A stretch of DNA of 64,000 nt from Verrucomicrobiota bacterium (GCA_039806955.1 JBDHQI010000019.1:3707-67706), one strand, 5' to 3'. Positions 40,957 to 58,733 are shown, counted from the stretch's first letter. Notes: generated from the letters alone by a model not told the origin. Numbers and translations: made by a program.

Positions 40957-41001
40957 AAACGGACTTGGAAAGCGTTTAACCGGGAACGCCGCCACCTGGC
41001 G

Positions 41002-41025: not shown

Positions 41026-41032
41026 ACAGGCC

Positions 41033-41063: not shown

Positions 41064-41070
41064 GACGAAG

Positions 41071-41328: not shown

Positions 41329-41330
41329 GG

Positions 41331-41498
41331 CTACTTGATCTCCTTGTGCAACGTGTGGCGGCGGAGAGCCGGGTTGTATTTTTTCAATTCCAACTTCTCC
41401 GTCTGCAGTTTTTTATTGCGAGTGGTCGTGTAACGGGAGGGGGATTTTCCCTCCTTCCGAGCCTCGGTGCATTCGATGGTGATTATTTCACGCGGCAT
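41331..41498 (-). CDS. rpmG: 50S ribosomal protein L33 (Zn ribbon degenerate; absent from the ORF track)
   Basis: [55 protein letters not shown]. Confidence 0.95.
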
Positions 41499-41506
41499 AA
41501 AATTTT

Positions 41507-42100
41507 CTATTCTTCTTTTTCTTTGGCCGGCTTCTCATCCGGCGCGTCATCGTTGTCATCTTCCAACTCGGCGGTCGCTGCGGCATCCACGGTGCCCAAC
41601 TGTCCAAGCCGACGTTGGCGCAAAGCGCCTTCGCGTTCCAACTGCGCCTGCGCCTGCACGGTGAAACGCGCCCACGGAATGGCTTCGAGTCGCGCCTTCG
41701 GAATCGCCTTCCCGGTCAATTCACACACACCATAAGTGTTTCGCTCGATTCGTTTCAAGGCTTCTTCAATCTCGTAAAGCGCGTCTTGATCGGCGGATAA
41801 CAAACTGAGCGCGAAATCACGGTCAAAATTGTCCGTTCCAGAATCGGCCATGTGCAGACCGTATCCCGCGATTTCCTCAGCGGATTCTTTTGCCAGTCCC
41901 GACATTTGTTGGACCAATTGAGCGCGCAACTCTTGCAGGTGGAGATAATACTTTTGCCACTCGGGCCTCACGCGTTTGGGCCTAAGCTCCTTGGCGCCTG
42001 ATTTTCCGCCCACGGGGCGACCGAGGATCGCTGCGGCTGAGGCTGGCGCATGTGAGATCACTCGTCCCGTTTTCTTGGTTACTTTCTTCTTTGCAGTCAC
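41507..42100 (-). CDS. dksA: DksA/TraR family regulator with one-Cys finger
   Basis: [43 protein letters not shown]; GTG 42100 start is uncertain. Confidence 0.85.
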
Positions 42101-42299
42101 GCGTCTTTTTTTCGATATTCTGGCCTGATTTTTCACTCCTCGGAGCCCATTGTTTCCTACGAGGGGCGCGACTGTATCAGATGAACGGAAATAATCCATA
42201 AAAAAGTTCAGTAAAAACACCTTCAGAATTGACGGCTGATTTTCAAAAAGTATCGCTGGCCGCTCTTGACTTGACCCCGGCTTTCCTCAACATCGTTTC

Positions 42300-43310
42300 G
42301 TGGCTTTATTCACAATCCAGAGTGATTTTCGGTACGAGGTCGTTCGGAAGATTTTCGAGGGCGGCATGGGGGTGGTGTACGAGGCCGAGCAGCGCGGCGC
42401 CCGCAACTTTGTAAAACGGGTGGCCATTAAAATCATCCGCCCCAATTACGCCAGCCAGAAGATGTTCATCGAGAACTTCATTGGCGAAGCCAAACTGGTC
42501 GCCGACCTCATCCACACCAACATCGTCCAAACCTATCACCTCGGTGAAACCAACAACGCCTGTTTCATTGCGATGGAGCTTATTCGCGGGGTGAACCTGG
42601 AGCAATTCGGCCAGCAGCTTGCAGAGAAACGCCGCCAATTGCCGTTGGAGCTGGCGGTGTTTATCACCAGTCGGGTGGCACGCGGACTGGCCTACGCCCA
42701 TGCGAAGACCGGCCCGGATGGAAGGCCGCTGGGCATCGTACATCGCGATGTCAGCTTCAAGAACATCATGATCGCTTTCGAAGGCGACGTTAAGTTGACC
42801 GATTTCGGCATCGCCAAAGCGCGCGGGTTTTTGACGGATCAAGAAGGCGAGGTCGTCGCGGGCAAGGCCGATTACATGAGTCCCGAACAGGCGGATTTTC
42901 AAATCACGGATAAACGGTCCGATCTTTTTTCCGCGGGCGTGGTGCTGGCGCACCTGGTGCTTGGATACAACATTTTCAAGGGACTCACCGCCGAAGAATC
43001 ACGCCAGCGAGTCATCAAGCAGCCGGCCCCCGACTTTCGCACCTTGGACGCCCGCGTGGACGACCGGTTAAATAACATTCTACAGCGTTGTTTGACCCGG
43101 GATCGCCAGCAACGCTTCGCCACCGCGGATGAGTTGATGTACGAGCTGGAGTATTACATCTACCACGGCGGCTATGGCCCCACCAACGAGACGCTGGGCA
43201 AGTTCATCCGCGAACTGTTCGGCCAATCCCCGTCTGCGATACAAACCGCGGAATTACAGGAGCGGACCGAACTTATGGAAAACAGTTCCCGGCTCCACGC
43301 CAACCCGTAA
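42300..43310 (+). CDS. Hanks-type Ser/Thr protein kinase, soluble
   Basis: GGMGVVY, VAIK, HRDVSFKN, DFG, YMSPEQ, SDLFS. Confidence 0.93.
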   Translation: MALFTIQSDFRYEVVRKIFEGGMGVVYEAEQRGARNFVKRVAIKIIRPNYASQKMFIENFIGEAKLVADLIHTNIVQTYHLGETNNACFIAMELIRGVNLEQFGQQLAEKRRQLPLELAVFITSRVARGLAYAHAKTGPDGRPLGIVHRDVSFKNIMIAFEGDVKLTDFGIAKARGFLTDQEGEVVAGKADYMSPEQADFQITDKRSDLFSAGVVLAHLVLGYNIFKGLTAEESRQRVIKQPAPDFRTLDARVDDRLNNILQRCLTRDRQQRFATADELMYELEYYIYHGGYGPTNETLGKFIRELFGQSPSAIQTAELQERTELMENSSRLHANP

Positions 43311-43338
43311 CGCAGTGAAACGACGCATCTCAAATTCC

Positions 43339-44217
43339 ATGGTCCGCCTCGGCCTGTTGCAACACGCCTGCGGCCCGGACCCGATCGCCAATCGCAAAAA
43401 AGCCCTGACGCTGGCGGAACGTGCCGCCAAACAGGGCGCGCAAATCATCTGCACGCAGGAGTTGTTCACCTCGCAATACTTTTGCCAGAGCGAAGATCAC
43501 GACTGTTTTCAACTGGCCGAACCCATCCCCGGACCGAGCACGCAGGCGTTTCAAAAACTGGCCAAGCGACATCAAGTCGTCGTGATCGCGTCGCTTTTCG
43601 AGAAACGCGCGGCGGGTGTTTATCATAACTCCGCCGCCATCATTGACGCGGATGGGGAATTACTCGGCACGTATCGGAAGATGCACATTCCGGATGACCC
43701 GCTGTATTATGAGAAATTTTATTTCACCCCGGGCGATTTGGGTTTCCGTGTGTGGAATACGCGCTACGGTAAAATCGGCGTTTTGATTTGTTGGGATCAA
43801 TGGTATCCGGAAGGCGCGCGACTGACCGCCATGCAAGGCGCGCAAATCCTGTTCTATCCCACCGCCATCGGCTGGCATCCGAGCGAAAAACCCTCACACG
43901 GGGACAAGCAACATGGCGCCTGGGAAATCATTCAACGCAGTCATGCCGTGGCCAACGGATGTTACGTGGCCTCGGTGAACCGGGTTGGCCATGAAATCCT
44001 CTCCGCAGTGGGCGGCGCGGGAATCGAGTTTTGGGGCCAAAGCTTTGTCGCCGGCACCGCTGGTGAGATTCTGGCCAAGGCCGGCAATCACCAGGAAGAA
44101 GTCCTCATTGTCCCCGTGGACCTGGCGCAAGTGGACCTCACTCGCACGCATTGGCCATTTTTGCGGGATCGCCGAATTGACGCTTATGGCGACATCACCC
44201 GCCGACTCATTGACTGA
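43339..44217 (+). CDS. Carbon-nitrogen hydrolase (N-carbamoylputrescine amidase/beta-ureidopropionase-like)
   Basis: QELF, YRKMHIPDDP.YYEKFYF, ICWDQWYPE, WPFLRDRR. Confidence 0.9.
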   Translation: MVRLGLLQHACGPDPIANRKKALTLAERAAKQGAQIICTQELFTSQYFCQSEDHDCFQLAEPIPGPSTQAFQKLAKRHQVVVIASLFEKRAAGVYHNSAAIIDADGELLGTYRKMHIPDDPLYYEKFYFTPGDLGFRVWNTRYGKIGVLICWDQWYPEGARLTAMQGAQILFYPTAIGWHPSEKPSHGDKQHGAWEIIQRSHAVANGCYVASVNRVGHEILSAVGGAGIEFWGQSFVAGTAGEILAKAGNHQEEVLIVPVDLAQVDLTRTHWPFLRDRRIDAYGDITRRLID

Positions 44218-44304
44218 CTGGGAAAGCCGACCTTGACTTGAAGTGGCGATTTTCCTTTCGCTCCGCTTGCCCCCCTGCCCTTTTTGCATCAACATTCTCG
44301 CGCA

Positions 44305-46041
44305 ATGAAAAAGAAACCGTCTGCTCACGCCGAACCGAACCTTCGCCCCTTTTCCAGCGCCCTGCTTGACGGGCCGGAACGCGCCGCCGCGCGCGCCATG
44401 TTGTATCCAGTCGGCTTTCGCGCGGAAGATTTCAAAAAACCGCTCATCGGGGTGGCGTCCACCTGGAGTGACGTCACGCCGTGCAACATGCACATTGACG
44501 ATCTCGCCCTGGCGGCTGAAGCCGGCGTCAACGCCAACGGCGGCAAGGCGATTGTCTTCAATACCATCACCGTTTCCGACGGCATCTCGAATGGCAACGA
44601 GGGTATGAAATACTCGCTCGTGTCGCGCGAAGTCATCGCGGACTCAATCGAAACCGTGGTCGGCTGCGAAGGGATGGACGGCTACCTTGCCATCGGAGGT
44701 TGCGATAAAAACATGCCCGGCGCCTTGATTGCCATGGCGCGCATGAATCGGCCCGCCGTTTTCGTTTACGGCGGCACCATTTTACCCGGATTACTCAAGT
44801 CGCCACATTCGCCCAACGGCGACAAGGAAGTTGATATTGTTTCCGTCTTTGAAGCCATCGGACAACACGCTGCGGGTAAAGTCAGCGACGCAGAGTTGCA
44901 CGCGGTGGAATGTTGCGCCATTCCCGGGCCGGGCGCCTGCGGCGGCATGTACACCGCCAACTCCATGGCCAGTGCCATTGAAGCGCTGGGTATGAGTCTG
45001 CCCAACAGCTCGGCGCAAAACGCCATTTCCAAGGCGAAGCTCGAGGATTGTCGGCGCGCCGGCGCGGCGGTGGTGGACATGTTGCGCCAAGGCATCCGAC
45101 CGTGCGATATTCTCACCCGCAAAGCCTTCGAGAATGCGATCACCACCGTTATCGCGTTGGGCGGCTCAACCAATTGCGTGTTGCACCTATTGGCCATCGC
45201 CCAGGCCGCGAACGTAAAACTCTCGATTGACGATTTCACCCGCATCGGCAAACGCGTGCCGGTGCTGGCGGACCTACGACCAAGCGGCACCTTCAGCATG
45301 AGCGCACTCGTGGCGATCGGTGGCATTCGACCGCTGATGAAGACCTTGTTGGATGCCGGTTTGCTTCATGGCGATTGCCTTACCGTCACCGGCGAAACCA
45401 TGGCCGCAACCCTGGCGGACGTGAAGCCTTACCCGCCCGGCCAGAAGATCATTTATCCGCTGGATAACCCAATCAAGAAAGACAGCCACCTGGTCATCTT
45501 CTACGGCAACCTCGCGCCCGAGGGCGCCGTCGGTAAAATCACCGGCAAGGAGGGCACACGTTTCGAAGGTAAAGCCATCGTATTCAACGGCGAAGAAAAA
45601 GCCTTGCACGCCATTCTCGATGGCACGGTCAAAGCCGGACACGTTGTGGTGATTCGCGGTGAAGGTCCTAAAGGCGGTCCTGGAATGCGCGAAATGCTTT
45701 CTCCGACAAGCGCCATCATGGGTAAAGGTCTGGGTAAAGACGTGGCGTTGCTGACCGATGGCCGGTTCAGCGGCGGCAGCCACGGATTTGTAGTCGGTCA
45801 CGTCACGCCGGAATCCTATGTTGGCGGTCCGATTGCGCTCGTGAAAAATGGCGACAAAATCATCATTGATTCCGTCAAACGCACGCTCACGTTGGCCGTG
45901 TCCGCCAAGGAACTGGCGAAGCGAAAGAAAGCTTGGAAACAACCCAAACCGCATTACACCCGTGGCGTGCTGGCCAAATTCGCCGCGCACGTGACCAGCG
46001 CTTCGCAAGGCGCCGTGACCGATTTGGATTTGAAATTGTAA
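44305..46041 (+). CDS. ilvD: Dihydroxy-acid dehydratase
   Basis: [32 protein letters not shown]. Confidence 0.96.
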
Positions 46042-46139
46042 CCTCGGCAAACGGTCGCCAATGCGGTGGGCGGCTACGTAGTTCCCCTGTCACGCCGGGG
46101 CGGCAACGCCTCCGGGATTGCGTCTGCCATCACGCTTTG

Positions 46140-46173
46140 TTGACGTATGACATGATACTGTCATAAAATGACA
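46140..46173 (+). promoter_or_regulatory. Promoter overlapped by three alternating ATGACA/TGTCAT half-sites
   Basis: ttgacg-N18-taaaat; tatgaca-tgatac-tgtcata and tgtcat-aaa-atgaca. Confidence 0.65.
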
Positions 46174-46178
46174 ACATC

Positions 46179-47231
46179 ATGGCTGCTCTAAAACCTGAAC
46201 CACCCGTCTCCCGGCGGCGGGCGCAACGCGGTTGGTCACAAGCCGAACTGGCGCGGCGCGCGGATATTCCCCGCACCACCATCAGCGCCATCGAAGGCGA
46301 ACGCCTCACCCCTTCCGTCACCACGGCATTGGCCTTGGCGCACGCGCTCGAATGTTCCGTTGAAGAGTTGTTCAGCGACGCGGCGTTGCCCGCACCCACC
46401 GGGCCGACCTGGGCTTGGATGCCCCGGACAGAACCATGCCGGTATTGGGAGGCGGAAGTGGGCGGACGCCGCTTGCTCTACCCGGTGGAAAGCCTGGCGC
46501 TCAACGTGATTCCGCATGACGGCGTGTGGCGCGGCGGGCCGGGCCGGGATGTCGGTGAAACCCTGGCAACGGCCACATTGGTGCTCGCGTGTTGCGATCC
46601 TGCCGCCGGCTTGCTCGCCGCGGAATATGCGCGGACCAGCGGTTTGCGGCTCATCGTGTTCCCGCGCAGCGGTAGCGAGGCCATTGATTTGTTGAAGCGC
46701 GGCTTGGTGCATCTGGCGGGACTGCACCGCTCCACTCAGGAGCATCCCCAGCGCAATCTGGAAACGGTGCATAAAGAGTTGGGCAACGGTTTCCGTCTGG
46801 TGCGCGTGGCGGACTGGCAGGAGGGGTTGGCGCTCCCGACGGACTGGCGTTCGCGCTCGCCTTCGAGCGTCGCCCGTCAGGTGCAGCGCTGGGCGTTGCG
46901 TGAAACCGGTTCGGCGGCACGGGAGTGTCTTGACCAACTCCACGCTGGCGCCACGGGACGAACGGTTCACAGTCATGCCGCGGTTGCGGAAGCCATTCGT
47001 GGCGGCTGGGCAGAGGCGGGCGTGTGCGTGCAGTTATCTGCCGAAGAATCGGGCTTGAACTTTCTGCCAGTTCGCATCGAGGCTTTGGACTTTTGCTTCT
47101 CCGGAAAACGGCAACACGATCCCCGCCTGCAGGCGTTTCTGCGGCTTCTGCGCAGCCGATCGTATCGCCAGATCATTGGCGAGTTGCCCGGGTACGATAC
47201 CCGGCACACCGGCGAAGTCTGCTCAGTCTGA
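46179..47231 (+). CDS. XRE-HTH plus PBP-like (molybdate-binding type) transcriptional regulator
   Basis: GWSQAELARRADIPRTTISAIE HTH; CDPA, GS.EA..LL.RG.VHLAGLH, RETGSAAR, SH.AVA.AI..G.A.AG, LPGYD. Confidence 0.85.
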   Translation: MAALKPEPPVSRRRAQRGWSQAELARRADIPRTTISAIEGERLTPSVTTALALAHALECSVEELFSDAALPAPTGPTWAWMPRTEPCRYWEAEVGGRRLLYPVESLALNVIPHDGVWRGGPGRDVGETLATATLVLACCDPAAGLLAAEYARTSGLRLIVFPRSGSEAIDLLKRGLVHLAGLHRSTQEHPQRNLETVHKELGNGFRLVRVADWQEGLALPTDWRSRSPSSVARQVQRWALRETGSAARECLDQLHAGATGRTVHSHAAVAEAIRGGWAEAGVCVQLSAEESGLNFLPVRIEALDFCFSGKRQHDPRLQAFLRLLRSRSYRQIIGELPGYDTRHTGEVCSV

Positions 47232-47237
47232 CCGGCA

Positions 47238-48050
47238 ATGAATACCTCCCCAGGCAACTCGTGCGCGAGCCAACCCGCGTTTACGCTGATTGAGCTCCTG
47301 GTGGTCATCGCCATCATCGCTGTGCTGGCGGGAATGTTGTTGCCGGCGCTGTCGCGGGCGAAGGAAAAATCCAGGGAAACCCAGTGCGTCTCGAACCTGC
47401 GCCAATGGGGACTCGCTGTGCAAATGTATGCGGAAGATCACGAGGGTTTCCTGCCGCATCCGGATGATCGCCGCCGCGATGGCGGCATCCTTGGTTCGAC
47501 AACGCATCCCGAGCATGATTTCAGCTACGTGGACCTGCTGCCTGCGTATCTCGGCGTCCCGGCGTGGCGGGACTATCCAGTCGATGCAAAACCCACCGGC
47601 GGAATCTGGCAATGCCCGTCCGTCCGGCTGTTGGCGGAATCGGAATACGATTATCAGCCGGCGGCGAATGGTTATCACAGCTATGCCATGAACTCCTATC
47701 TCGCCCACGATTTCCTTTATGGCCTGCCGTGGGGCGCGGAGTTGCAGCCCAGTTTTCTCAAGTTGTCGCGAGCGGTCGCTCCCTCCCGGACCGTTGCGAT
47801 GTTCGAGCAGACCCTCGATCCGCGGGCGGGTTATGGGCTGGCGGGGTCGTTTCGCATGGCCGGTTACCAGACTGCCGAGGACGCCCGCGCGGCCGCCGAA
47901 CGTCACGCCCGCCGCCGCAGCGAATTGGGCGGCATCGTACTGCACCTCGACGGTCACGTGCGCTGGCGCAACGATCTTTGGAACAAGTTCCGTTCCAATC
48001 CGCGCATCCCGCAACGGGGCGATCCAACCTGGTTTCCTTACTATTACTAA
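47238..48050 (+). CDS. Prepilin-type N-terminal cleavage/methylation protein (DUF1559-like, H-X-DG C-terminal motif)
   Basis: [29 protein letters not shown]...CVSNLRQ; RH...LDGHV. Confidence 0.92.
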
Positions 48051-48065
48051 ACCAACTCCATTCGA

Positions 48066-49013
48066 ATGAAACATCGCCAAACGAACATGAATAACAACAA
48101 CACCCCCACGACCTCGAACCATTGCTTCCACCGAAAATGGCTGGCCGCTGTTTTGGTGATTGGCAGCCTGCCGGTGCTGACCCACGCCGTGGACTTTCCG
48201 ATCACAACCGATACTTATCTGGACAGCCGTCCGGATAATCAAACGGCGAACTACGGTCTTAACGGCAGCGTGCGAGTGTTGGTAAACAGCGATACTTCGG
48301 TGACGCGCGGGCTGTTCGCCATTCCGGAAGCACTGGCCGGGTATCCGCCGGAAGCCCTACAGGAAGCGCGGGTCTATTTCTACGTGTTTCAGGACAATAC
48401 GAAGACCCGTGATATCCGCCTCTATCCGCTGACCACATCGTTCGTCGAGGGCACGGGAGCGACGGGATCGGGGGCAACATGGTTCACCTGCGACGGAACA
48501 AACAACTGGACGACTCCCGGCGGAGATTGGGACACCACCCACGCGGTACTCGGGGTGAAGGAGCCGGTGTTGGACCTGGACCTCAACGACCGGTTTTTCA
48601 GTTGGGACATCACCGGGCTGCTCACCAATAATTTGACGCGGTCCAATCTGCTGACGCACGGCGCGATTCTCATCATTGACGAATCTCCCATTCCCGCCAC
48701 CAGTTCGGATCGCGCGCCTTTCACATCGTCGGAAAGCACGTCCAATCCCGCGGAGTATTTGCCCCGGATTGCCGTGACCCTGCGCCAGCCGGTCCTGAAC
48801 CTCGTCAAGTCGGGCGCGAACGAATTCCGTCTGAACATTGCCAACGCCATCCCGTCCCGCCTCCATCGCATCGAACGAACTTTTGACCTGACCTCGCCGG
48901 CCAACTGGACCGAAGTCGTCACACTTCAGGTGACTGGTACGGAAACCAACTGGACCGAAGCCGCGTTTGGCGCAGGAACAAACGTCTTTTATCGCGTGCA
49001 AGTTGAACCATGA
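48066..49013 (+). CDS. Secreted DNRLRE/CBM96-like domain protein with C-terminal FYRV domain
   Basis: Signal peptide; DTYL..RPD..TANYG, TW....NWTTPGGDW, WDITGL, FTSSE....PRI. Confidence 0.7.
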   Translation: MKHRQTNMNNNNTPTTSNHCFHRKWLAAVLVIGSLPVLTHAVDFPITTDTYLDSRPDNQTANYGLNGSVRVLVNSDTSVTRGLFAIPEALAGYPPEALQEARVYFYVFQDNTKTRDIRLYPLTTSFVEGTGATGSGATWFTCDGTNNWTTPGGDWDTTHAVLGVKEPVLDLDLNDRFFSWDITGLLTNNLTRSNLLTHGAILIIDESPIPATSSDRAPFTSSESTSNPAEYLPRIAVTLRQPVLNLVKSGANEFRLNIANAIPSRLHRIERTFDLTSPANWTEVVTLQVTGTETNWTEAAFGAGTNVFYRVQVEP

Positions 49014-49552
49014 GGGGCGATCGCCAATCACGCCCTCTGGTGCGGCTCGTCACCGGAGAACGGGGCGCGGGCAAGACGCGCTGGTGTGAAGGCGCAATCG
49101 CGTCGGCGCGGGCGGCCGGCCACAGCGTGCGCGGGCTGCTCTCGCCAGGCCTCTTCGTGGCCGGAAAAAAGGCCGGCATTCTGGTGCGGGACATTCATTC
49201 CAGCGCGGAACGCCACCTCGCCAGCCCTCACGTCCCATCCGGCGCGGACGCGAAACGCCTTTGGGATTTTCACGATGAGGCGATGGCGTGGGCCAATGAG
49301 CGGCTGCGGATGGCGGGTCCTTGTCACACGTTGCTGGTGGATGAAGTCGGGCCGATGGAACTGGTGGAGAATCGCGGGTGGACGGCGCTCTGGCCGGTCT
49401 TGCGCGATGGCGGTTTCACGCAGGCCATCCTGACCGTGCGACCCACGTTGCTGGAAACTTGTAAGGAGCGGATTCGCCAACTCGGTGAGTTTGAATGGGA
49501 GATCATTTCCTGCCCGGTCAGAAAGGACACACATGTCTCGCTCTCACACTGA
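49010..49552 (+). CDS. P-loop NTPase (NTPase_1/DUF2478-like)
   Basis: VTGERGAGKT Walker A; LLVDEVGPMEL. Confidence 0.8.
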   Translation: MRGDRQSRPLVRLVTGERGAGKTRWCEGAIASARAAGHSVRGLLSPGLFVAGKKAGILVRDIHSSAERHLASPHVPSGADAKRLWDFHDEAMAWANERLRMAGPCHTLLVDEVGPMELVENRGWTALWPVLRDGGFTQAILTVRPTLLETCKERIRQLGEFEWEIISCPVRKDTHVSLSH

Positions 49553-50621
49553 ACACCACACCCTTCACGTCGCGCTGGTGGCAGCCGCTTTGTTGACGCT
49601 CGTCGTCACTGCGGAGGCCGCGCCACTGACGCTGACCAACAGCGAGGGACGCGAATTGAAATTGAACCAATCGCCGGCGCGCCTCGTGGTGGCCGGACAC
49701 GGTTCGTTCATGATCGTCCATGCCGCCGCGCTCTTCCCCGAGGCAAAGGAACGCCTCCGCGCCGCCGCAGGCGGACGCCAGTTGCGGGGGGATAATTTCG
49801 ATTTCCTGATCAAAGCGGGGCGCGTCTCGCCCGACCTTGTGCTGCTCGGCCCGGAGGTCGGGCCGGAGCAACTCGCGCCGCTGCGCCCGGACCTCGTGCT
49901 GCTCAAGAGTGTTTCGGTGCGGCTCGGTGACGCGCTCGAAAAGATCCGCCTCCCTTCGTTTTATTTCGATCTCGAGACTCCGGAGCAATACGAGCGAGAA
50001 CTGGTCAGCCTGGGAAAAATCCTGGGAGATGCGCAACGGGCCGCGGACCTGGTGGCTTACTATCGTGAACGCCGCAACATCGTCTCCAAGCGGCTGGCGG
50101 ACTTGCCACTCGAAAAACGACCGCGCGTCTTGCTGATTCAGGCTTCCGCCAAAGGCGGCACGCTTTCATTCAGCGTGCCGGCGAAGGACTGGATGCAAAC
50201 GCGGCTGGTCGAACTCGCCGGCGGCATTCCCGTCTGGCGGGATGCGCCCACGCGCAGCGGCTGGACGGTGGTCAGCCTCGAACAGGCGGCCGCGTGGAAT
50301 CCGGATGTGATTCTCCTGGTGGACTACGGCGAGGGCAGCACCGAAATGGCGGCGCGCATCCGGGGCGATCGCACCTGGCAAAAACTGGACGCGGTGAAGC
50401 ACGGCAGAGTCTGGACGTTTCCGCGCGATTTCGTCTCCTGGGATCAACCTGATCCGCGCTGGGCATTGGGTCTGATGTGGGCGGCCAAACGCCTGCATCC
50501 GGAACGGTTCACCGAACTAAACCTTTGGGCGGAGGTGGTGAACTTCTACCAGTGGTATGGCCTGAATGAAGCCGAGGTGACGGCGCAAATCAAACCGCGA
50601 CTGCGTGGCGACTGGCCATGA
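49533..50621 (+). CDS. Class III ABC substrate-binding protein (BtuF/FecB/MolA type)
   Basis: Signal peptide; EQLAPLRPDLVL, VSLEQ...WNPDVI, LDAVKHGRV, WDQP...LGLMWAAK.LHPE; RBS aaagga. Confidence 0.9.
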   Translation: MSRSHTEHHTLHVALVAAALLTLVVTAEAAPLTLTNSEGRELKLNQSPARLVVAGHGSFMIVHAAALFPEAKERLRAAAGGRQLRGDNFDFLIKAGRVSPDLVLLGPEVGPEQLAPLRPDLVLLKSVSVRLGDALEKIRLPSFYFDLETPEQYERELVSLGKILGDAQRAADLVAYYRERRNIVSKRLADLPLEKRPRVLLIQASAKGGTLSFSVPAKDWMQTRLVELAGGIPVWRDAPTRSGWTVVSLEQAAAWNPDVILLVDYGEGSTEMAARIRGDRTWQKLDAVKHGRVWTFPRDFVSWDQPDPRWALGLMWAAKRLHPERFTELNLWAEVVNFYQWYGLNEAEVTAQIKPRLRGDWP

Positions 50622-50625
50622 ACCC

Positions 50626-51621
50626 ATGACTCGTCCACCCCGGCTCACTTCACCCTGGCTGCTGCCCGCGCTCCTGTTGCCGCTGATCCTCCTGTCGCTG
50701 CTGCTCGGGCGCTATCCGCACCCGCCGGGGATGTCGGTGCGCCTGCTTTGGGAGGATGAACTGGCCCGGGAACTGGTGTGGAGTCTGCGCCTGCCGCGCG
50801 TCTGTGCCGCCGTGCTGCTGGGCATGGCCTTGGGCGCGGGTGGCGCGGTGCTGCAGATGCTCTTTCGCAATCCGCTGGTTGAACCGGGTTTTCTGGGCGT
50901 ATCCCAGGGCGCGGCCTTTGGGGCGGCGCTGGCCATTCTCTTCTTCAAAGGCGCGATCATTTTGTTGCCCTTGAGCGCCGGGTTGTTTGCGTTGGGCGGG
51001 TTGGCCTTATCCTACACGCTCGCGCGACATCTCAAATTCGGCGGTTGGATCATGCGACTGGTTCTCGCGGGCATCGTGGTTTCCGCGCTCTTTTCGTCCG
51101 GTCTGGGCTTGCTCAAAAGCATGGCCGATCCGCAGCGCGAATTGCCGGAGCTGACCTTCTGGCTGCTCGGCGGCCTGTGGGGTGTTTCGTGGGACGATGT
51201 GCAACGCATGGTGGCCATTGTCGTTCCCGCCTTGATCGTCATCAGTTTGATGCGCTGGCGCATTTCGATACTCGCGTTGGAGGAAGCCACGGCGTTTTCG
51301 CTGGGCGTAGCCGCGGGGCGGGAGCGCGCCCTGTTGGTGGTGGCGGCAGTAGCCGCCACAGCCGCGGTCGTTTCGGTGGCCGGCATGGTGGGATGGATTG
51401 GATTGCTCGTGCCGCACATTGCCCGGCGTCTGTTGAGAGCAGATTCCCGCTCGTCGCTGCCGGGTGCGATGTGGTTGGGGGGCATCTTTGCCTTGGGCTG
51501 TGATGATGTCGCCCGCACCTTGACTCCCGGAGAAATCCCGCTCGGCATCCTCACCTCGTTGATCGGGGCGGTTGGATTTGCCGTGATTCTGATGCGCGGA
51601 AAAGGGTCAGCCCGCGAATGA
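50626..51621 (+). CDS. FecCD/BtuC family ABC permease
   Basis: RLPR, LFRNPLVEP..LGVSQGA, GWIGLLVPHIAR, EIPLG. Confidence 0.93.
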   Translation: MTRPPRLTSPWLLPALLLPLILLSLLLGRYPHPPGMSVRLLWEDELARELVWSLRLPRVCAAVLLGMALGAGGAVLQMLFRNPLVEPGFLGVSQGAAFGAALAILFFKGAIILLPLSAGLFALGGLALSYTLARHLKFGGWIMRLVLAGIVVSALFSSGLGLLKSMADPQRELPELTFWLLGGLWGVSWDDVQRMVAIVVPALIVISLMRWRISILALEEATAFSLGVAAGRERALLVVAAVAATAAVVSVAGMVGWIGLLVPHIARRLLRADSRSSLPGAMWLGGIFALGCDDVARTLTPGEIPLGILTSLIGAVGFAVILMRGKGSARE

Positions 51622-52394
51622 CAGCCACCCCGTCCATTCTGCGTCTGGAGCGTGTTGTCTTCGGTTACACGGAGGACGAAACCGTGTTGCGCGGCATTTC
51701 GTTGTCCATCCCCACGGGCGCGCTGACGGCGATTCTCGGCCCGAATGGTGGCGGTAAAACCACATTGCTGCACCTGCTGCTCGGCTGGTTGCGGCCGCGC
51801 ACCGGCACGTTGCAACTCCAGGACCGCCCGCTCGACGCTTTCAGCCATCGAGAACGCAGTCGTCTCATCGGGTTGGTCCCGCAGAGCGAACACATTCCAT
51901 TTGAGTTCACCTTGCTGGACTATGTCCTGCTCGGGCGCGCGCCCCATCTCGGTCCGTTGGAAATGCCGGGAGCTTCGGATCTGGCGGCGGCGCGGCAGGC
52001 CATCCAGCGCGTCGGGTTGAATGAATTGATCTCGCGTCCGCTGACGCACATGAGCGGCGGCGAACGCCAACTGGCGACGATCGCCCGCGCGTTGGCGCAA
52101 CAACCTGCCGTGCTCCTGCTGGACGAACCCACCTCGCATCTCGACCTCGCCAATCGCCGCCGCGTGCGCAACGTGTTGCGTCAACTCGTCAGCGATGGCA
52201 TCACCGTGATCTGCACCACGCATGATCCGGCATTGGCGGCGGGAATGGCCGATGCCATCGTCTTGATGCGCGCCGGCGAGGTGGTCGCCGCCGGCCCGAC
52301 TGAAACCACCTTGACCTCGGAAAAACTCAGCGCGACTTATGGCCTGCCGGTTGCCGCCCGCCGCGTTGACAACGAATGGCTGATCACTTCATGA
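51618..52394 (+). CDS. ABC transporter ATPase (FecE/BtuD-like)
   Basis: GPNGGGKT, MSGGE, LLLDEPTSHLD. Confidence 0.94.
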   Translation: MTATPSILRLERVVFGYTEDETVLRGISLSIPTGALTAILGPNGGGKTTLLHLLLGWLRPRTGTLQLQDRPLDAFSHRERSRLIGLVPQSEHIPFEFTLLDYVLLGRAPHLGPLEMPGASDLAAARQAIQRVGLNELISRPLTHMSGGERQLATIARALAQQPAVLLLDEPTSHLDLANRRRVRNVLRQLVSDGITVICTTHDPALAAGMADAIVLMRAGEVVAAGPTETTLTSEKLSATYGLPVAARRVDNEWLITS

Positions 52395-53305
52395 ACTGCA
52401 ACTCTACCACTGACTGGCTCGCCCATTGGGAGTCCCTGGTCCGACAAAGGGACGCCGGCGAGCACATCACCGCGCTCGTTGCCGACACTGACGACGAGTG
52501 GCGAACCCGCGCCGCAGACTATGCCCGGCACGCCCCACTCCGAAACGAAGGTCGCCGGGTGGCCCAAGCGGTTCTGGCTTCGGCCTGTCAGGTGGTGGCC
52601 CACGCGACCGTGCTCGATATTGGAGCGGGAACGGGAATCTGGAGCGTGCCACTGGCCAATTGGGCCGCACGGGTCACGGCCTTGGAACCCTCCCCGGCCA
52701 TGCGCGCGCAATTGGAAAAAGCGGTGGCGGCGGCCGGCGTTGGCGACCGCGTAACGATTGACCCGCGGGCCTGGCCCGGCATTGAAATTCCGAAGCACGA
52801 CGTGGCACTATGCGCCCACGTACTCTACGGAATCGCCGACTTTCGCGGCTGGATTGAGGCCATGACTGCAAGCGCCCGCGAGCTGTGCGTGTTGTTGCTT
52901 CGTGCGCCCGCCGCCGATGATTTCCTGAACGAGGCGCGACGCCTGATTGAGAAAACCCAAGCGGCCAGGCCGGACGCCTTTCTGGCTGCGAACGCGCTGT
53001 GGCAAATGGACCTTCGTCCGCACATCCTGATGGAATCCATCGCCGCGCCTTACTCGGGAACCTACCCTGACCCGGCGGCGGCCCTGGTTGGCCTGAAGCA
53101 AATCCTTCATTTGCAAGCCGAGTCGCGTTATGACCAATGCTTGACGGAACTGCTGGAGCGGCGGCTGGATCGAACTCCTGAAGGCTTGCGACTACCGCCC
53201 CGACCACCCACCGCCATTCTGATGTGGCAACCGCCGGGCCACACTCGCACGCTGCTTGAACTACTGGCAGCGCTCACAACGAAATTCTCAACGGAACGCC
53301 CGTGA
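52391..53305 (+). CDS. Class I SAM-dependent methyltransferase
   Basis: VLDIGAGTG, VTALEPSPAM; ATGA overlap with the ATPase. Confidence 0.85.
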   Translation: MNCNSTTDWLAHWESLVRQRDAGEHITALVADTDDEWRTRAADYARHAPLRNEGRRVAQAVLASACQVVAHATVLDIGAGTGIWSVPLANWAARVTALEPSPAMRAQLEKAVAAAGVGDRVTIDPRAWPGIEIPKHDVALCAHVLYGIADFRGWIEAMTASARELCVLLLRAPAADDFLNEARRLIEKTQAARPDAFLAANALWQMDLRPHILMESIAAPYSGTYPDPAAALVGLKQILHLQAESRYDQCLTELLERRLDRTPEGLRLPPRPPTAILMWQPPGHTRTLLELLAALTTKFSTERP

Positions 53306-53422
53306 GATTGCGGAGGTGATTCAGTGGGGGAAAGCTTTGATTGAAGTCAGGAGGAGGAATTGACTAGACTGCGGCTGCTTACCAGCTTCACTGGTATCGG
53401 TTAAATTTACATGGAGCATTCA

Positions 53423-54178
53423 ATGGACAAACATGAATTGAAAAACAAAGTGGCATTGATTGGTGGCGGCGCCAAAAACCTGGGTGGGCTGATCAGTCGC
53501 ACTTTTGCGCAGGAAGGCGCCCGGATTTGTGTGCATTACCACGGTGAGGCGACCAAAGCCGAGGCCGACAAAGTGGTGGCGGAGATCAAGACAGGAGGCG
53601 GCGAAGCTTTTGCGGTAGCCGCGGATTTCACCAAGCCGACCGAAGTGGCGGGAATTTTCACTGCCGTCAAACAAAAATTCGGCGGAATTGATATCGCCGT
53701 GAACACGGTGGGCAAGGTGCTGCGCAAGCCGATCATCGAAACCACCGAAGCGGAATACGACAGCATGATGGCCATTAACGCCAAGGCCGCTTATTTCTTC
53801 ATCAAGGAAGCCGGACTGCATTTGAACGAGGGCGGCAAAATCATCACCATCGTCACCTCGCTGCTGGCCGCTTTCACTGATGGTTATTCGACCTATGCGG
53901 GCGGCAAGGCGCCGGTGGAACACTTCACCCGCGCGGCGGCCAAAGAATTCGCCAAACGCGGCATTTCCGTCACGGCGGTTGGTCCCGGCCCAATGGATAC
54001 TCCTTTCTTTTACGGTCAGGAAACGCCTGAACGCGTGGCGTACCACAAATCACAATCGCTCAATGGCGATTTGACCAAGATCGAAGACATCGCCCCCATC
54101 GTGAAATTTTTAGCGACGGAAGGCTGGTGGATTACCGGTCAAACCATCTTCGCCAACGGCGGCTACACCACGCGTTGA
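53423..54178 (+). CDS. SDR family oxidoreductase
   Basis: GGAKNLG, YAGGK, GPGPMDT, ITGQTIFANGG; ATG 53411 alternative. Confidence 0.92.
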   Translation: MDKHELKNKVALIGGGAKNLGGLISRTFAQEGARICVHYHGEATKAEADKVVAEIKTGGGEAFAVAADFTKPTEVAGIFTAVKQKFGGIDIAVNTVGKVLRKPIIETTEAEYDSMMAINAKAAYFFIKEAGLHLNEGGKIITIVTSLLAAFTDGYSTYAGGKAPVEHFTRAAAKEFAKRGISVTAVGPGPMDTPFFYGQETPERVAYHKSQSLNGDLTKIEDIAPIVKFLATEGWWITGQTIFANGGYTTR

Positions 54179-54327
54179 TCCCTTGGAGTTTCGGGTTGAG
54201 AAACACCAAACCAGAACGGTGATTTCTCGTTGCTGGCATTTGGGGGGATTGCCGCAACCCCAAGGCAACGAACTTCAAACCGCCTGGCCACAACGCGCGC
54301 GCAACCCAACGGCGTGCGCGCTTTCGT

Positions 54328-55641
54328 TCAGATGAACTCGTTGATCAAGTTTTCCAGATACTCCTGGCGGCCGCTGGCATTGGCTGTGATCTCGCCTTTT
54401 TCGAGCATGTACGCCTCCAGCTCCTTGAATCCGACTTTGCCCTTTTCGATCTTGGCGCCGATGCCCGAGTCCCATGAGGCGTAACGCTGCCGCACAAATT
54501 TGTCCAAGCGTCCATCCTGACGAATCGCCACGGCGATTTTGAGACCGCGCGCAAAAGCGTCCATGCCGCCGATATGCGCGTGAAACAAATCCACCGGCTC
54601 AAAACTCTCGCGCCGCACTTTCGCATCAAAGTTGACCCCGCCGGTTTTAAAGCCGCCATACTTCAGCACGCTCAACATTGTGTACGTGGTGAGGTAAATG
54701 CTGGTCGGGAACTGATCGGTGTCCCAGCCGAGCAATTCATCGCCCGTATTTGCGTCAATGGACCCCAGCGCGCCCGCCGCGCCAGCGACTTCCAATTCGT
54801 GCTGCATGGTGTGCCCGGCCAGCGTGGCGTGATTGGTTTCCACGTTCAGTTTGAAATACGGCAACAATCCGTAGGCGCGCAGAAAATTCAAACACGCCGC
54901 CGCATCTGAATCGTATTGATGCTTGGTCGGCTCTTTCGGTTTGGGTTCGATGTAAAATTGCCCCTTGAAGCCGATCTGCTTTTTATAGTCCACCGCGAGG
55001 TGCAGCAATCTAGCCATGTGATCCTGCTCGCGTTTGAGGTCCGTGTTGAGCAACGTCATGTAGCCTTCGCGCCCACCCCAAAAAGTGTAACCGCCGCCCT
55101 TCAGTTCATGTGTGATCTCCAGCGCCTTCTTGATCTGTGCTGCCGCGAACGCAAAAGCGTCTGCGTTACAACTCGTGCCGGCTCCGTGCATGAAGCGTGG
55201 ATTGGAAAATAGATTAGCCGTTCCCCACAGTAACTTGATCCCGGTCCGCTTCTGTTCGGCCTTCAGCACCCGGACCACGGCATCCAGATTTTTGTTGCTC
55301 GCGCGCAAACTGTCGCCTTCCGGCGCCAGATCGCGGTCGTGAAAGCAATAAAACGGCGCGCCGAGTTTTTCCAAAAATTCAAACGCCACGCGCGCGCGAT
55401 TTTCGGCATTGGCGACTGAATTGGAGCCGTCATCCCAGGGGCGCTGCATGGTGCCGACCCCGAAGGGATCGCTGCCCGTGCCCCGGAACGTGTGCCAATA
55501 CGCCACGGCAAAGCGCAAGTGCTCGCGCATCGTTTTGCCGCCCACCACCGCATCGGCATTGTAGTGCTTGAACGCGAGCGGATTCTTGGACTTCGGACCT
55601 TCGTATTTGATCTTTGGAATTTTCGGAAATGCTGCGGGCAT
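54328..55641 (-). CDS. xylA: Xylose isomerase (class II)
   Basis: [33 protein letters not shown]. Confidence 0.97.
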
Positions 55642-55847
55642 GATGTTGTTATTCGTTATCACCAACCTCCTGAAGCGGCCCACGCAAACCAGGGCGCGGC
55701 AGCCCGGCTTCAGGTCAATCTGGTGACAAGGATGCCGGGCCGGATTCGCTTTGGCAATCTTTCCGTGCAACGGGACGGCGCGCAATGGAGTCTGGAGTTG
55801 CGCTGGGCTGGTAATTCTGCCAACACTATGTCGTCGGAAGCGTGGCC

Positions 55848-55923
55848 GGGGTCTTAGCTCAGTTGGTAGAGCGTCTCGTTCGCAATGAGAAGGTCAGGGG
55901 TTCGAACCCCCTAGACTCCACCA
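55848..55923 (+). tRNA. tRNA-Ala(CGC)
   Basis: GGGGTCT/AGACTCC acceptor with G3-U70, anticodon arm tctcg-ttCGCaa-tgaga, GTTCGAA T-loop, encoded CCA. Confidence 0.97.
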
Positions 55924-55969
55924 GCCCCTCCCCGAGGACCTGCCCAGTTACACAAAACGTATCAACCTT

Positions 55970-56434
55970 ATGCCCCGCCCGACCTCGCTGGTAAAAATAA
56001 TGATCGGGGTGGGTCTCGCCAGCGTGCTGCTCTACTTTGTCGGCTTTTCCTGGATTGAACATAATCGCTATAAAAAGGGACCTTGGGAATTTACCTTTCT
56101 CGAAACCAACCAGACCCCGGCGCTGCAAATCACTCAACCTGCCCTGGGACTGAGCAACGTAACCCTTGTCTTTTTCGACGCACCTGCGCCCGCCAACCTG
56201 CCGCAAACGGTTCGCTTCCAGTTGGGAGAAAAGCCGCCTTTCGAGCTTCCATTTGGGCGTTGCGTATTCCTTGATACCTTGTTCCTGCCGGGCACCGTCG
56301 TGGTGAACGTGTTTGGGCACGAAATTCAGGCGTTGCCGCGCACGCTGACCATTGACCGCATTGAGCGGCCCTGGAAATCCGGGGAGAAAATTCTTTTGAC
56401 CAACGGCGCCTCCGCTACATTGTCCCCTGAGTGA
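55970..56434 (+). CDS. Hypothetical membrane-anchored protein
   Basis: N-terminal TM helix; 3 bp from the next gene. Confidence 0.7.
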   Translation: MPRPTSLVKIMIGVGLASVLLYFVGFSWIEHNRYKKGPWEFTFLETNQTPALQITQPALGLSNVTLVFFDAPAPANLPQTVRFQLGEKPPFELPFGRCVFLDTLFLPGTVVVNVFGHEIQALPRTLTIDRIERPWKSGEKILLTNGASATLSPE

Positions 56435-56437
56435 GAT

Positions 56438-57004
56438 ATGTTGCTGGTCATTGATAACTACGACTCGTTCACCTACAACATCGTGCAATACCTCGGCACG
56501 ATGGCGGTGGACTTGCAAATCGTCCGCAACGACCAGATCACCGTGACACAAGCGCGGAAACTGCAGCCGGAGCGCCTGCTCATTTCCCCCGGCCCCTGTA
56601 CGCCACAGGAAGCGGGCGTTTCCAATGAAATTCTGCGCGCCTTGGGGCCAACCATTCCCACGCTCGGAGTCTGTCTTGGACATCAATGTATCGGCCATGT
56701 CTTTGGGGCCAACGTCGTGGTCAACCATCAGATGATGCACGGCAAAACTTCGCTCATTCAACACAACGGAAAGGAATTGTTCGCCGGAATGCCCAATCCC
56801 TTCCCGGCCACACGATATCACTCTCTGATCATCGAGCGCGCTTCCCTGCCCGCTTGTCTGGAAGTCACGGCGGAAACCGACGCCGGTGAAATCATGGGGG
56901 TACGCCACAAGGAATTTCCCATCTGGGGCGTGCAGTTTCATCCCGAAAGCATCCTCACCGAAAACGGTGCCGATATTTTTCGTAATTTCCTGAAACTGAA
57001 ATAA
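56438..57004 (+). CDS. Anthranilate/aminodeoxychorismate synthase glutamine amidotransferase subunit (TrpG/PabA)
   Basis: [32 protein letters not shown]. Confidence 0.95.
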
Positions 57005-57113
57005 GCGATCCGGCGTGGATGGCTTCCACCTCCGTTCGGAGGGAAATAAACCGATCCGCCATAGCAACCGGGGCGCTTGACCGGATGCTTCGCTCTACCC
57101 TACGTTCGTGGTC

Positions 57114-58733
57114 ATGTCGCCGCGCAAAATTGGATTGGCCATTTTCGGAATCGTCACACTAATCGGATTGAATTCCCCGGGCGCACCCCGGCCGAACATT
57201 CTGCTGATCCTGACGGATGACATGGGCTTTTCCGATCTCGGTTGTTATGGCAGCGAGATTGCCACGCCAAACCTGGATCGGCTGGCAGCCGAGGGACTGC
57301 GCTTCACTCAATTTTACAATACCGCTCGCTGCTGGTCGTCACGCGGTTGCCTGATGACCGGCTATTACGCGCAGGCCATTCGGCGGGACACACTGCCGGA
57401 CATTCCCAGCGGCGGCAACGGCAAACGCCCCCGTTGGGCGCCCTTGGTCAGCAAATTTCTGCAAGCCGCCGGGTATCGCTGTTATCATTCCGGCAAATGG
57501 CACATTGACGGAGACCCACGACAAAACGGTTTTCATCACAGCTACGAAGTGCGGAATGAGAATAACAACTTTCGGCCCGGCGCCGACAGGGCAGACGGTC
57601 GCCCGGTGCCGCCGCCGGAGAACTATTATTCCGCCACCGCGTTTGCGGATCACGCCATCAAATGCCTGAAAGAACACGCGGCCAATTACGCGAACCAACC
57701 TTTCTTTGCCTACCTGTGCTTCATCACGCCGCATTTTCCGTTGCAAGCGCCCGCCGCCGATATTGCGAAATATGCGCACACTTACGACGCCGGTTGGAAC
57801 GTGATGGCGCAACGGCGCTACGAGCGGATGACGACTCTGGGGCTGGTGCATCACGCCCTGCCGCCAATGCAGCGCGACGTCGGACCGCCGTATTATTTTC
57901 CCGAAGCGTTGCGGCAACTGGGCGACGGAGAAATCAATCGGCCGTTTCCGTGGAGTGAGCTGACGCCGGTTCAGCAAAAATTTCAGGCTGCCAAAATGTC
58001 GGTTCATGCCGCGATGGTGGATCGGATTGATCAGGAGATCGGACGGGTGCTGGAGCAACTTCAAGCCATGGGCGCTTACGAAAACACGTTGATTCTCTTC
58101 GCCTCCGACAACGGCGCGAGTGCGGAAATCATGGTGCGCGGCGACGGTCATGATCCCGCCGCGCCGCCGGGTTCAGCTCAATCCTTCCTTTGCCTGGGAC
58201 CGGGCTGGTCGAGCGCCTGCAACACGCCGTTTCGTCTGCACAAAACCTGGGTGCATGAAGGCGGGATCGCCGCCCCGTTGATTGCGCATTGGCCGGCAGG
58301 TTTCAACGCACGCGGCGAATTGCGCACTACTCCCGCCCACTTCATTGACGTGGTGCCGACCTTGCTGGAAGTCGCGCAAACCGAAAAACCAAAAATAATT
58401 CAAAACCTCCCGGTCCCGCCCGCTCCCGGAAAAAGTTTGGTCAGCGTGTTTGCCAAAGACGGCAGCGTCACGCATGACCAGCTTTGGTGGTTGCACGAGG
58501 ATAATCGCGCGATCCGCGTCGGCGATTGGAAACTCGTCTCCACCAAAGGCCCGTGGGAATTGTATGATCTCACCACGGATCGCGGTGAATCGCATAACCT
58601 GGCGGGGCGGCATCCCGAAAAAGTGAAGGAGTTGGCGACGCTTTGGCAGGCACAGACAGCGCAGATTCGGGAGCTGGCCCTGACCGATTTAGCACCGCCA
58701 GCAGAAAGCGTGACGCCCAAGAGTTCAAAGTAA
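57114..58733 (+). CDS. Arylsulfatase (S1 sulfatase), exported
   Basis: PNILLILTDDMG, RCWSSR, GKWH, SDNG, WELYDL. Confidence 0.92.
   Translation: MSPRKIGLAIFGIVTLIGLNSPGAPRPNILLILTDDMGFSDLGCYGSEIATPNLDRLAAEGLRFTQFYNTARCWSSRGCLMTGYYAQAIRRDTLPDIPSGGNGKRPRWAPLVSKFLQAAGYRCYHSGKWHIDGDPRQNGFHHSYEVRNENNNFRPGADRADGRPVPPPENYYSATAFADHAIKCLKEHAANYANQPFFAYLCFITPHFPLQAPAADIAKYAHTYDAGWNVMAQRRYERMTTLGLVHHALPPMQRDVGPPYYFPEALRQLGDGEINRPFPWSELTPVQQKFQAAKMSVHAAMVDRIDQEIGRVLEQLQAMGAYENTLILFASDNGASAEIMVRGDGHDPAAPPGSAQSFLCLGPGWSSACNTPFRLHKTWVHEGGIAAPLIAHWPAGFNARGELRTTPAHFIDVVPTLLEVAQTEKPKIIQNLPVPPAPGKSLVSVFAKDGSVTHDQLWWLHEDNRAIRVGDWKLVSTKGPWELYDLTTDRGESHNLAGRHPEKVKELATLWQAQTAQIRELALTDLAPPAESVTPKSSK

Follow-up and report, generated by a model that had tools for sequence, protein, structure and literature searches.

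The stretch of DNA analysed here, referred to as the window, comprises 64,000 nucleotides from a Verrucomicrobiota bacterium (GCA_039806955.1, JBDHQI010000019.1:3707-67706), whose genome, G000, is 94.65% complete. Between positions 46179 and 53305 it contains a compact cluster of genes that encode a regulator, a prepilin-like protein, a secreted protein, an NTPase, the three parts of an ATP-binding cassette (ABC) importer of type II, and a methyltransferase (Table 1). The original prediction, made from the window alone, had described these genes as a molybdate/tungstate uptake operon in which the pilin-like and secreted proteins capture the substrate for the importer. All eight plus-strand open reading frames (ORFs) are present as it had listed them, and its description of the junctions as overlaps or as gaps of at most 15 bp is borne out by gaps of 6 and 15 bp followed by overlaps of 4, 20, 17, 4, and 19 bp. 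The gene for the substrate-binding protein (SBP) is likelier to start at the ATG at 49533, with a signal peptide, than at the first GTG of its ORF at 49485. As argued below, the best reading of the cluster is a Mol-type uptake operon related to molybdenum or tungsten (Mo/W) with a TaoR-like regulator, although the whole case for it rests on comparative genomics.

Table 1. Features of the cluster, with positions counted from the first nucleotide of the window.
Feature	Position	Strand	Basis
Promoter-like site and candidate operator	46140..46175	+	Region 5' of regulator gene
Regulator, XRE-type helix-turn-helix and PBP_like sensor	46179..47231	+	Pfam HTH_3, PBP_like
Prepilin-like protein	47238..48050	+	N_methyl, TIGR02532
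Secreted 315-aa protein	48066..49013	+	Sec signal; relatives DNRLRE/CBM96-like
Cytoplasmic P-loop NTPase, NTPase_1 (THEP1-like)	49010..49552	+	PF03266
Periplasmic class III substrate-binding protein, MolA subgroup	49533..50621	+	Peripla_BP_2
FecCD-type (type II) ABC permease	50605..51621	+	FecCD
ABC ATPase	51618..52394	+	ABC_tran
Class I S-adenosylmethionine-dependent methyltransferase	52376..53305	+	Methyltransf_23/25/12/11

The eight genes form one accessory unit of insertion or deletion, which lies between ilvD and a gene for a short-chain dehydrogenase/reductase (SDR). In G017, a genome from the same genus, all eight are found in identical order between the same two neighbours, and the flanking proteins are 98% identical to those of the window, as compared to 74-93% for the proteins of the cluster. 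Conversely, in a third genome from this genus, G014, the gene order is kinase-aguB-ilvD-SDR-xylA, with the SDR gene directly after ilvD and the cluster absent. The shared site in G017, the empty site in G014, and the contrast in GC content between the cluster (0.630) and its flanks (0.566 and 0.565) together mark the genes as a single accessory island, which was probably acquired horizontally. A homologue of the SBP was found in only two of 61 relatives, and a locus search that used the SBP returned a single close locus. Contig L001 carries six of the genes, from the pilin to the ATPase, in the same order. The operon of G017 is the same apart from a gene for a DUF1016/YhcG PDDEXK nuclease (L009:11805-12911), inserted after the ATPase gene and before that for the methyltransferase. 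Contig L001 has a ModE-N-like gene upstream in place of the XRE-PBP regulator, and has no methyltransferase; its ATPase gene is instead followed by arsenic-type genes (L001:6868-9114) that encode an ArsC-like low-molecular-weight phosphatase, an ArsM-like methyltransferase, and ArsD.

The regulator combines an HTH_3 domain (residues 12-64, 5.9e-13) with a PBP_like domain (PF12727, residues 148-325, 1.7e-32), the latter scoring 112.6 bits against a Pfam cut-off of 27. Its C-terminal part additionally matches the C-terminal part of the model for the molybdopterin biosynthesis protein PRK14498 (1.3e-20). The protein shares 93% identity with its counterpart in G017 and 58% with the homologue from locus L037, which harbours an importer of the second class described below. 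No relative of the sensor domain was found by sequence in the PDB. The statement in the original prediction that PBP-like domains of this kind occur in Mo/W-related regulators and in fusions with MoeA agrees with the relevant passages of the literature, in which the domain is canonical for TaoR, a tungstate-responsive regulator (PMC11980592, PMC12327845), and is also present on the MoeA protein of Desulfovibrio (PMC10102598). The window regulator resembles TaoR/VnfR-type regulators in having an N-terminal helix-turn-helix followed by a PF12727 sensor. However, it has no TOBE domain, and its helix-turn-helix is the XRE-type HTH_3, whereas the TaoR-like proteins described in the pertinent part of PMC11980592 carry HTH_17.

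It is most likely that a single promoter and operator control the operon through this regulator, which would sense an oxyanion; the eight genes are presumably co-transcribed. A promoter-like sequence, TTGACG-18-TAAAAT, is found at 46140-46169, ending 9 bases short of the ATG of the regulator, and is overlapped by a perfect palindrome, ATGACA-N6-TGTCAT (46150-46167), which is a candidate operator. G017 retains this region, where the left arm of the palindrome differs at one position. Terminator-like sites number seven against 8.3 expected, and no convincing terminator was seen within the cluster. A wider regulon defined by the palindrome was rejected, as the only other perfect copy in the genome (G000:C30:288-305) precedes an unrelated 1255-aa Golvesin_C/Ig-domain protein; in a genome-wide control, the reversed pattern gave one match per strand. 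Control by a riboswitch or another RNA element was similarly rejected, since a search of Rfam at E<=1 over positions 40000-58000 gave only one tRNA, and no cobalamin riboswitch.

The original prediction had proposed to compare the SBP and permease with MolA, BtuF, and FecB; in sequence and profile searches against the PDB, MolB and MolA come out ahead of BtuC and BtuF. The SBP has a signal peptide, no lipobox, and a Peripla_BP_2 domain (1.8e-18, Pfam). As a single sequence, it matches 4ovk (1.6e-22), MolA HI_1472 (2e-17), and 4hn9 (1.8e-16). A profile built from six orthologues matches 4ovk (2.9e-33), 4hn9 (2.1e-25), MolA (4.1e-21), and 4pag (1.2e-20), after which the next match is at 2.2e-12, with IsdE at 1.9e-07 and BtuF at approximately 7e-05. 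The siderophore, haem, and B12 binders lie at 1e-10 or worse, and MolA is the nearest relative of known ligand. For the permease (FecCD, 6.2e-77, Pfam), the best solved relative is MolB HI1471 (2nq2; 1e-52, 182.8 bits), followed by the hemin permease 5b57 (7.9e-43), HmuU (1.2e-42), and BtuC (1.5e-35). It is the only FecCD permease found in G000, where it gives a single tblastn match at E<=1e-6. The ATPase matches ABC_tran (2.1e-30), and each of its NCBIfam matches falls below the respective cut-off.

MolA binds both molybdate and tungstate, and MolBC-A is described, in the passages of PMC4031551 that concern it, as a low-affinity importer of molybdate. The window importer has the same layout of SBP, FecCD permease, and ATPase as MolABC of Haemophilus influenzae (HI1470/HI1471/HI1472), but differs in three respects. 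Its SBP has nearer relatives than MolA in 4ovk and 4hn9, its operon additionally contains the regulator, pilin-like protein, secreted protein, NTPase, and methyltransferase, and no ModABC system was found beside it, whereas Haemophilus possesses both Mol and Mod according to the same passages. As the original prediction had observed, no TonB-dependent receptor is encoded in the cluster, in that none of the eight proteins matches a TonB-receptor or Plug family. This absence is not informative, since small oxyanions need no TonB receptor and type II importers commonly have their receptors encoded elsewhere.

With regard to the use of Mo by the host, G000 has MoaA_C, MoaC, MoaE, and MoeA_N, as well as bis-pyranopterin guanine dinucleotide (bis-PGD) enzymes. 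Neither a ModA nor a PBP_like_2 protein was found in this genome, and its only SBP_bac_11 protein is a sulfate binder (513.6 bits), with no non-sulfate member of that family found. ModA was likewise found in none of six genomes that carry the pilin-like and secreted pair (G000, G017, G119, G209, G260, and G368, from three genera), as compared to 28 of 61 relatives. The absence of ModA nonetheless constitutes a weak argument for a Mo/W role of the cluster. Nitrogenase, a possible Mo sink, was found in none of the six genomes, and no tungstoenzyme of the aldehyde ferredoxin oxidoreductase family was found in G000.

The prepilin-like protein possesses a class III signal, a glutamate at position +5, and a hydrophobic alpha1 helix, and matches N_methyl (2.1e-07, 30.6 bits, cut-off 21.2) and TIGR02532 (1.3e-06, 27.9 bits, cut-off 16.3). 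Its methylation motif, Glu5, and hydrophobic helix are those of the pseudopilins of type II secretion systems and of type IV pilins, as in GspG and PilA. The solved pilins and GspG match its profile only at positions 8-104, corresponding to the N-termini of GspG and PilA, and no solved relative of its head, of approximately 200 aa, was found by the profile search of the PDB. The match to DUF1559/SBP_bac_10 (PF07596) is similarly confined to residues 40-71 (profile positions 2-33 of 268; 26.5 bits, cut-off 23.3). No H-X9-DG model appears among the NCBIfam matches at E<=0.01, and relatives carry H-X9-DG names in one source. The likeness to the DUF1559/H-X9-DG family of the Planctomycetes-Verrucomicrobia-Chlamydiae (PVC) bacteria consists of this N-terminal match and of shared residues. 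The family residues C50, C126, R222, H223, D238, and H240 are kept, and F15, E19, Cys50, and Cys126 are invariant.

PVC bacteria contain tens to hundreds of prepilin-like DUF1559/H-X9-DG genes, and in the literature searched no function was found for these proteins. G000 has 67 pilin-like matches, the best of which, after the protein itself, is at 5.7e-24. Among 5816 database relatives at E<=1e-10, approximately 80 clusters share at least 40% identity with the window pilin at E<=7.6e-47, whereas the generic DUF1559/H-X9-DG proteins appear at E>=7.2e-31. Moreover, 23 positions of the head are conserved in the former group but not in eight generic relatives. Judged by these distances, the pilin head belongs to a discrete subfamily of PVC prepilin-like proteins. 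The subfamily differs from the generic members in that both its partner gene and its metal-uptake context are fixed. No pilus or type II secretion machinery genes are found among the eight genes of the cluster.

The fixed partner is the secreted protein, which carries a Sec signal (...LTHA/VD) and contains a divergent DNRLRE/CBM96-like domain at residues ~42-240 as well as a C-terminal domain of approximately 75 aa. The label "DNRLRE-like" in the original prediction is valid for the relatives of the protein rather than for the protein itself: the window protein matches no Pfam or NCBIfam family at E<=0.01, but 27 of its 40 aligned relatives match DNRLRE_dom (NF033679), while 12 match CBM96 (PF24517) and 21 PEP-CTERM. 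A CBM96 cluster is among its Atlas feature neighbours, at 0.97. At E<=1e-3 the family counts 269 representatives out of 1.84 billion, which makes it rare, and a sequence search of the PDB gave no solved relative. CBM96 is an alginate-binding module family, as described in the corresponding part of PMC9971899. DNRLRE/CBM96 proteins are often anchored by PEP-CTERM, in place of which the window protein has its ~75-aa C-terminal domain, and the context of its gene is metal uptake, not polysaccharide lyases. The domain is also found as a part of very large surface proteins that have CHB_HEX_C domains and Chlam_PMP-type repeats (L032:8309-11122 of G368, and L164), and in tandem in a 504-aa protein of G119 with two copies.

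In order to place the pair in context, loci were drawn from a phylum sample of 401 genomes, from genome contigs (14 loci), and from metagenome contigs (20 loci). Matches to the secreted protein at E<=1e-5 occur in 11 genomes of the phylum sample; leaving G000 aside, four of them are strong. The subfamily pilin adjoins the secreted protein in all four strong matches, in 13 of 14 genome loci (all but L048, whose match is at a contig end), and in 14 of the 20 metagenome loci, with a pilin fragment in a further one (L165). The remaining metagenome loci comprise three with the match close to or at the end of a contig (L155, L156, and L163), one of only 2.6 kb (L160), and one with a giant multi-domain form of the protein (L164). 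Two loci were omitted as duplicates (L042 of L030, and L045 of L032), and loci whose pilins are at least 97% identical were merged, to give 26 distinct loci.

Two unrelated classes of importer are found beside the pair. A Mol-type SBP, permease, and ATPase are present in six of the 26 loci (the window, L009, L001, L032, L044, and L046), whereas an energy-coupling factor (ECF) importer is present in 11, with a hydrophobic protein of approximately 190 aa in the position of the S component. Nine of these 11 loci have EcfAA', EcfT, and DUF364, and the contigs of the other two (L147 and L153) stop at the S component. The ~190-aa protein matches no Pfam or NCBIfam family. In L037 (5244-8811) and L038 (10747-14343), it is followed by a fused EcfAA', a CbiQ-type T component, and DUF364. 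In the DNA available for the other nine loci, five of which lie on contigs shorter than 6 kb, no importer is seen.

The further neighbours of the pair recur in a similar manner. A ModE-N-like or XRE-PBP regulator is present in 14 of the 26 loci, NTPase_1 in nine, DUF364 in 10, and XdhC in two; the ModE-N-like proteins are small helix-turn-helix proteins that match ModE_repress (TIGR00637) at approximately 1e-22, and XdhC matches the maturation-factor model for aldehyde oxidoreductase at 2.4e-56. Relatives of the methyltransferase, at 30-35% identity, occur in six of the loci, some of which have no importer; the protein has Methyltransf_23/25/12/11 folds and no assignable substrate. The NTPase scores 50.2 bits on PF03266 (3.4e-13) against a gathering threshold of 23.9, but 39.8 bits against 156 on the NCBIfam equivalog PRK13695, and has no PDB relative by sequence. 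DUF364 has been tied to Mo/W transport (section 3.3 of PMC2954201; the relevant passage of bioRxiv 2024.03.05.583561). As in the Methanococcus modABC operon and the Dhaf4260 family, in which DUF364 stands beside molybdate transporters, it follows the importer in these 10 loci. However, its partner here is an ECF or Mol-type importer rather than ModABC, and it is found neither in the window operon nor, by tblastn, elsewhere in G000.

A control was provided by the search with the pilin alignment, which was swamped by the generic N-terminal motif and returned 77 loci (1.04 Mb). In these generic-pilin loci, there were no matches for the secreted protein, ModE-N, regulator, NTPase, SBP, DUF364, or methyltransferase. 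The original prediction had made its proposal depend on the pilin and surface genes being conserved together with the importer, and the comparisons support this, with the pair linked to two unrelated importer classes across the 26 loci and no such linkage seen around the generic pilins. As to the survey of regulator-pilin-ABC linkage that it had proposed, the regulators and importers recur in the gathered loci, with no importer seen in nine of the 26. The pair switches between two importers that share no homology and yet retains its regulators, as would be expected if the module worked on one and the same substrate, and a functional coupling of the pilin-like and secreted proteins to the importer is well supported by these comparisons.

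Two of the loci are filed under distant organisms, namely L038 under Methanomassiliicoccales and L039 under Candidatus Acidoferrum. Their pilins are at least 97% identical to each other and to that of metagenome contig L152, and all three loci are of the Verrucomicrobia type; mis-binning is therefore probable for L038 and L039.

Taken together, we consider it on balance probable that the cluster is an accessory operon, in all likelihood horizontally acquired, which imports a substrate containing Mo or W, and in which the pilin-like and secreted proteins serve as an envelope module. The engine would be a type II importer of the MolABC type, consisting of a periplasmic MolA-like SBP, a MolB-like permease, and the ATPase, while the XRE-PBP_like regulator would sense the oxyanion as TaoR-type regulators do. 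Outside the inner membrane, the pilin-like protein and its DNRLRE/CBM96-like partner would act on this same substrate as a fixed two-gene module. Following processing by prepilin peptidase, the pilin-like protein could either stay in that membrane or become part of a short pseudopilus, and would in this manner display its specialised head. The head may then work together with the secreted partner, which in some relatives is predicted to be anchored to the cell surface by PEP-CTERM, and the pair might hand the substrate to the SBP or, in other lineages, to the ECF S component. In the cytoplasm, a downstream step would fall to the NTPase_1 protein and the methyltransferase. A purely functional analogy exists with the TonB-dependent receptors, haemophores, and surface lipoproteins that feed type II ABC importers, insofar as an extra-cytoplasmic module is genetically coupled to an inner-membrane importer and swaps importer types. 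However, the pair has no homology to these proteins, no beta-barrel, and no TonB box.

The original prediction is partly supported: in favour of Mo/W uptake, the regulator is TaoR-like, the ABC proteins are nearest to MolB and, among SBPs of known ligand, to MolA, and the genome has molybdenum cofactor (Moco) genes and no ModA that could be found; the simple reading of molybdate import fares less well. Several observations weigh against our interpretation. The loci were gathered through the secreted protein, the presence of which in them is consequently by construction. Four loci with at least 16 kb of DNA (L029, the L030 group, L031, and L049) contain the pair without an adjoining importer. 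The ModE-N-like proteins score approximately 80 bits against a cut-off of 98.5 on TIGR00637 and have no Mop domains. The titles of 4ovk and 4hn9, the two nearest solved relatives of the SBP, name no ligand. ModA is absent from 33 of the 61 relatives as well, and the six pair-bearing genomes in which it was not found are kin from three genera. The stretch occurs in ten DNA sequencing runs from wastewater or activated sludge, and in no listed RNA run.

The remaining difficulties concern the carriers themselves. In G119, G209, G260, and G368, which are 94-96% complete, no match to MoaA_C, MoaC, MoaE, or MoeA_N was found, nor was any bis-PGD enzyme. Yet each has three to five Moco-binding subunits of the xanthine oxidase (XO)/carbon monoxide dehydrogenase (CODH) family, and full three-subunit operons for FAD, 2Fe-2S, and Moco proteins were seen (loci L142-L145), so that these genomes look like Moco auxotrophs. 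G368 nevertheless carries the whole Mol-type cluster, even though imported molybdate would have no known use there. G119, G209, and G260 carry the pair and a ModE-N-like gene, and a homologue of the SBP was not found in any part of these genomes; a search for the S component in these three, G368, and G000 matched nothing, but had no positive control and says little. Eight further carriers were reached through the loci, of which three have MoaC (G461-G463) and seven have XO-family enzymes; in G464-G467, whose completeness is not given, XO-family enzymes are present and no MoaC was found. Overall, eight of 14 carriers have Moco enzymes, with two to five XO/CODH-family Moco subunits, without a match to MoaC, and three of the eight (G368, G465, and G466) have a Mol-type importer.

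These MoaC-less carriers keep open a reading in which the substrate is preformed Mo-pterin cofactor or a precursor of it, imported by the pair together with the Mol-type or ECF importers and processed inside the cell by XdhC, DUF364, and the NTPase. In addition to the eight genomes, the complete XO operons, and the missing Moco synthesis genes of the four near-complete carriers, such salvage would be consistent with the typical cargo of type II ABC and ECF importers, which is described as cofactors in the relevant passage of PMC4245157, and with the flavin- or pterin-type ligand that is proposed for DUF364 in a part of its structure paper (PMC2954201). The XdhC-family genes in two loci point in the same direction. 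However, G000, G017, and G461-G463 have MoaC and would not need salvage, and both the PBP_like domain of the regulator and the likeness to MolA point to oxyanions. The count of genomes with XO enzymes and no MoaC covers carriers of the cluster only, and includes G464-G467 with their unstated completeness. Furthermore, free Moco is very labile, and in the literature searched its uptake appears only for nematodes and, as speculation, for type XI secretion systems. We therefore regard a Mo-pterin substrate as unlikely, and it seems still more doubtful that the pilin-like and secreted proteins and the two importers together constitute a bacterial route of Moco or Mo-pterin-precursor salvage. If this were true, it would explain how Verrucomicrobiota can have several XO-family enzymes yet no MoaA, MoaC, MoaE, or MoeA that could be found, and it would call for rethinking what the Mol family, with its low reported affinity for molybdate, transports physiologically.

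It is also conceivable, though quite improbable, that the pair is an independent surface cassette of PVC bacteria, for example a glycan- or matrix-binding protein with a pseudopilin of its own, that shares only regulation or location with the importer and takes no part in handling what it imports. The matches of the secreted protein's relatives to the alginate-binding family CBM96 (as described in part in PMC9971899), the many PEP-CTERM surface proteins among these relatives, the four long loci without an importer, and the 66 other pilin-like genes in the genome would all suit such a cassette. Yet importer-less pairs keep the ModE-N-like regulator (L029, the L030 group, L031, and L150), the pair occurs in fixed gene orders with two importers that are not homologous and is gained or lost with the importer as one indel unit, and the generic-pilin controls have no such neighbours.

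Least probable of all is that the importer carries an ordinary type II substrate, such as an iron-siderophore, haem, or a corrinoid, and that the hints of Mo are coincidental: while its Pfam and NCBIfam families are generic, the best NCBIfam models are IsdE (4.7e-14) for the SBP, BtuC (1.3e-48) for the permease, and a corrinoid-protein-associated model (5.2e-09) for the methyltransferase, and its permease is the sole FecCD permease found in the genome, these NCBIfam matches are all far below their cut-offs, the tRNA is the only Rfam element near the cluster, MolB surpasses HmuU by 10 and BtuC by 17 orders of magnitude, MolA is similarly ahead of IsdE and BtuF in the SBP profile search, and the regulators and neighbours are of the Mo/W type in all lineages.

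Under the preferred reading of a Mo/W-related importer with an envelope module, the cluster assigns to one subfamily of DUF1559/H-X9-DG-type proteins a partner and a regulatory context that are both fixed, as well as a defined class of candidate substrate. This makes it testable whether such proteins serve in general as envelope modules specific for a substrate, and one branch of a large pilin-like family of unassigned function would receive its first testable role. The loci also provide a candidate route for Mo/W in bacteria for which searches for ModA, PBP_like_2, and other SBP_bac_11 binders gave nothing, link an ECF importer with a previously undescribed S component to DUF364 and ModE-like regulators, and bring out a set of genomes that resemble Moco auxotrophs.

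Two further features of the window lie outside the cluster. Downstream, the tRNA found by Rfam (68.8 bits, plus strand, 55848-55920) overlaps the 3' end, on the stop-codon side, of a minus-strand ORF of 402 aa (55859-57067). This ORF has a 55%-identical counterpart in G014 but no Pfam or NCBIfam match, and its true extent is doubtful. Upstream, a Ser/Thr kinase ORF (42300-43310) and an N-carbamoylputrescine amidase ORF (43174-44217) have 137 bp in common; since the amidase match starts only at residue 58, the real start of the amidase is probably later.

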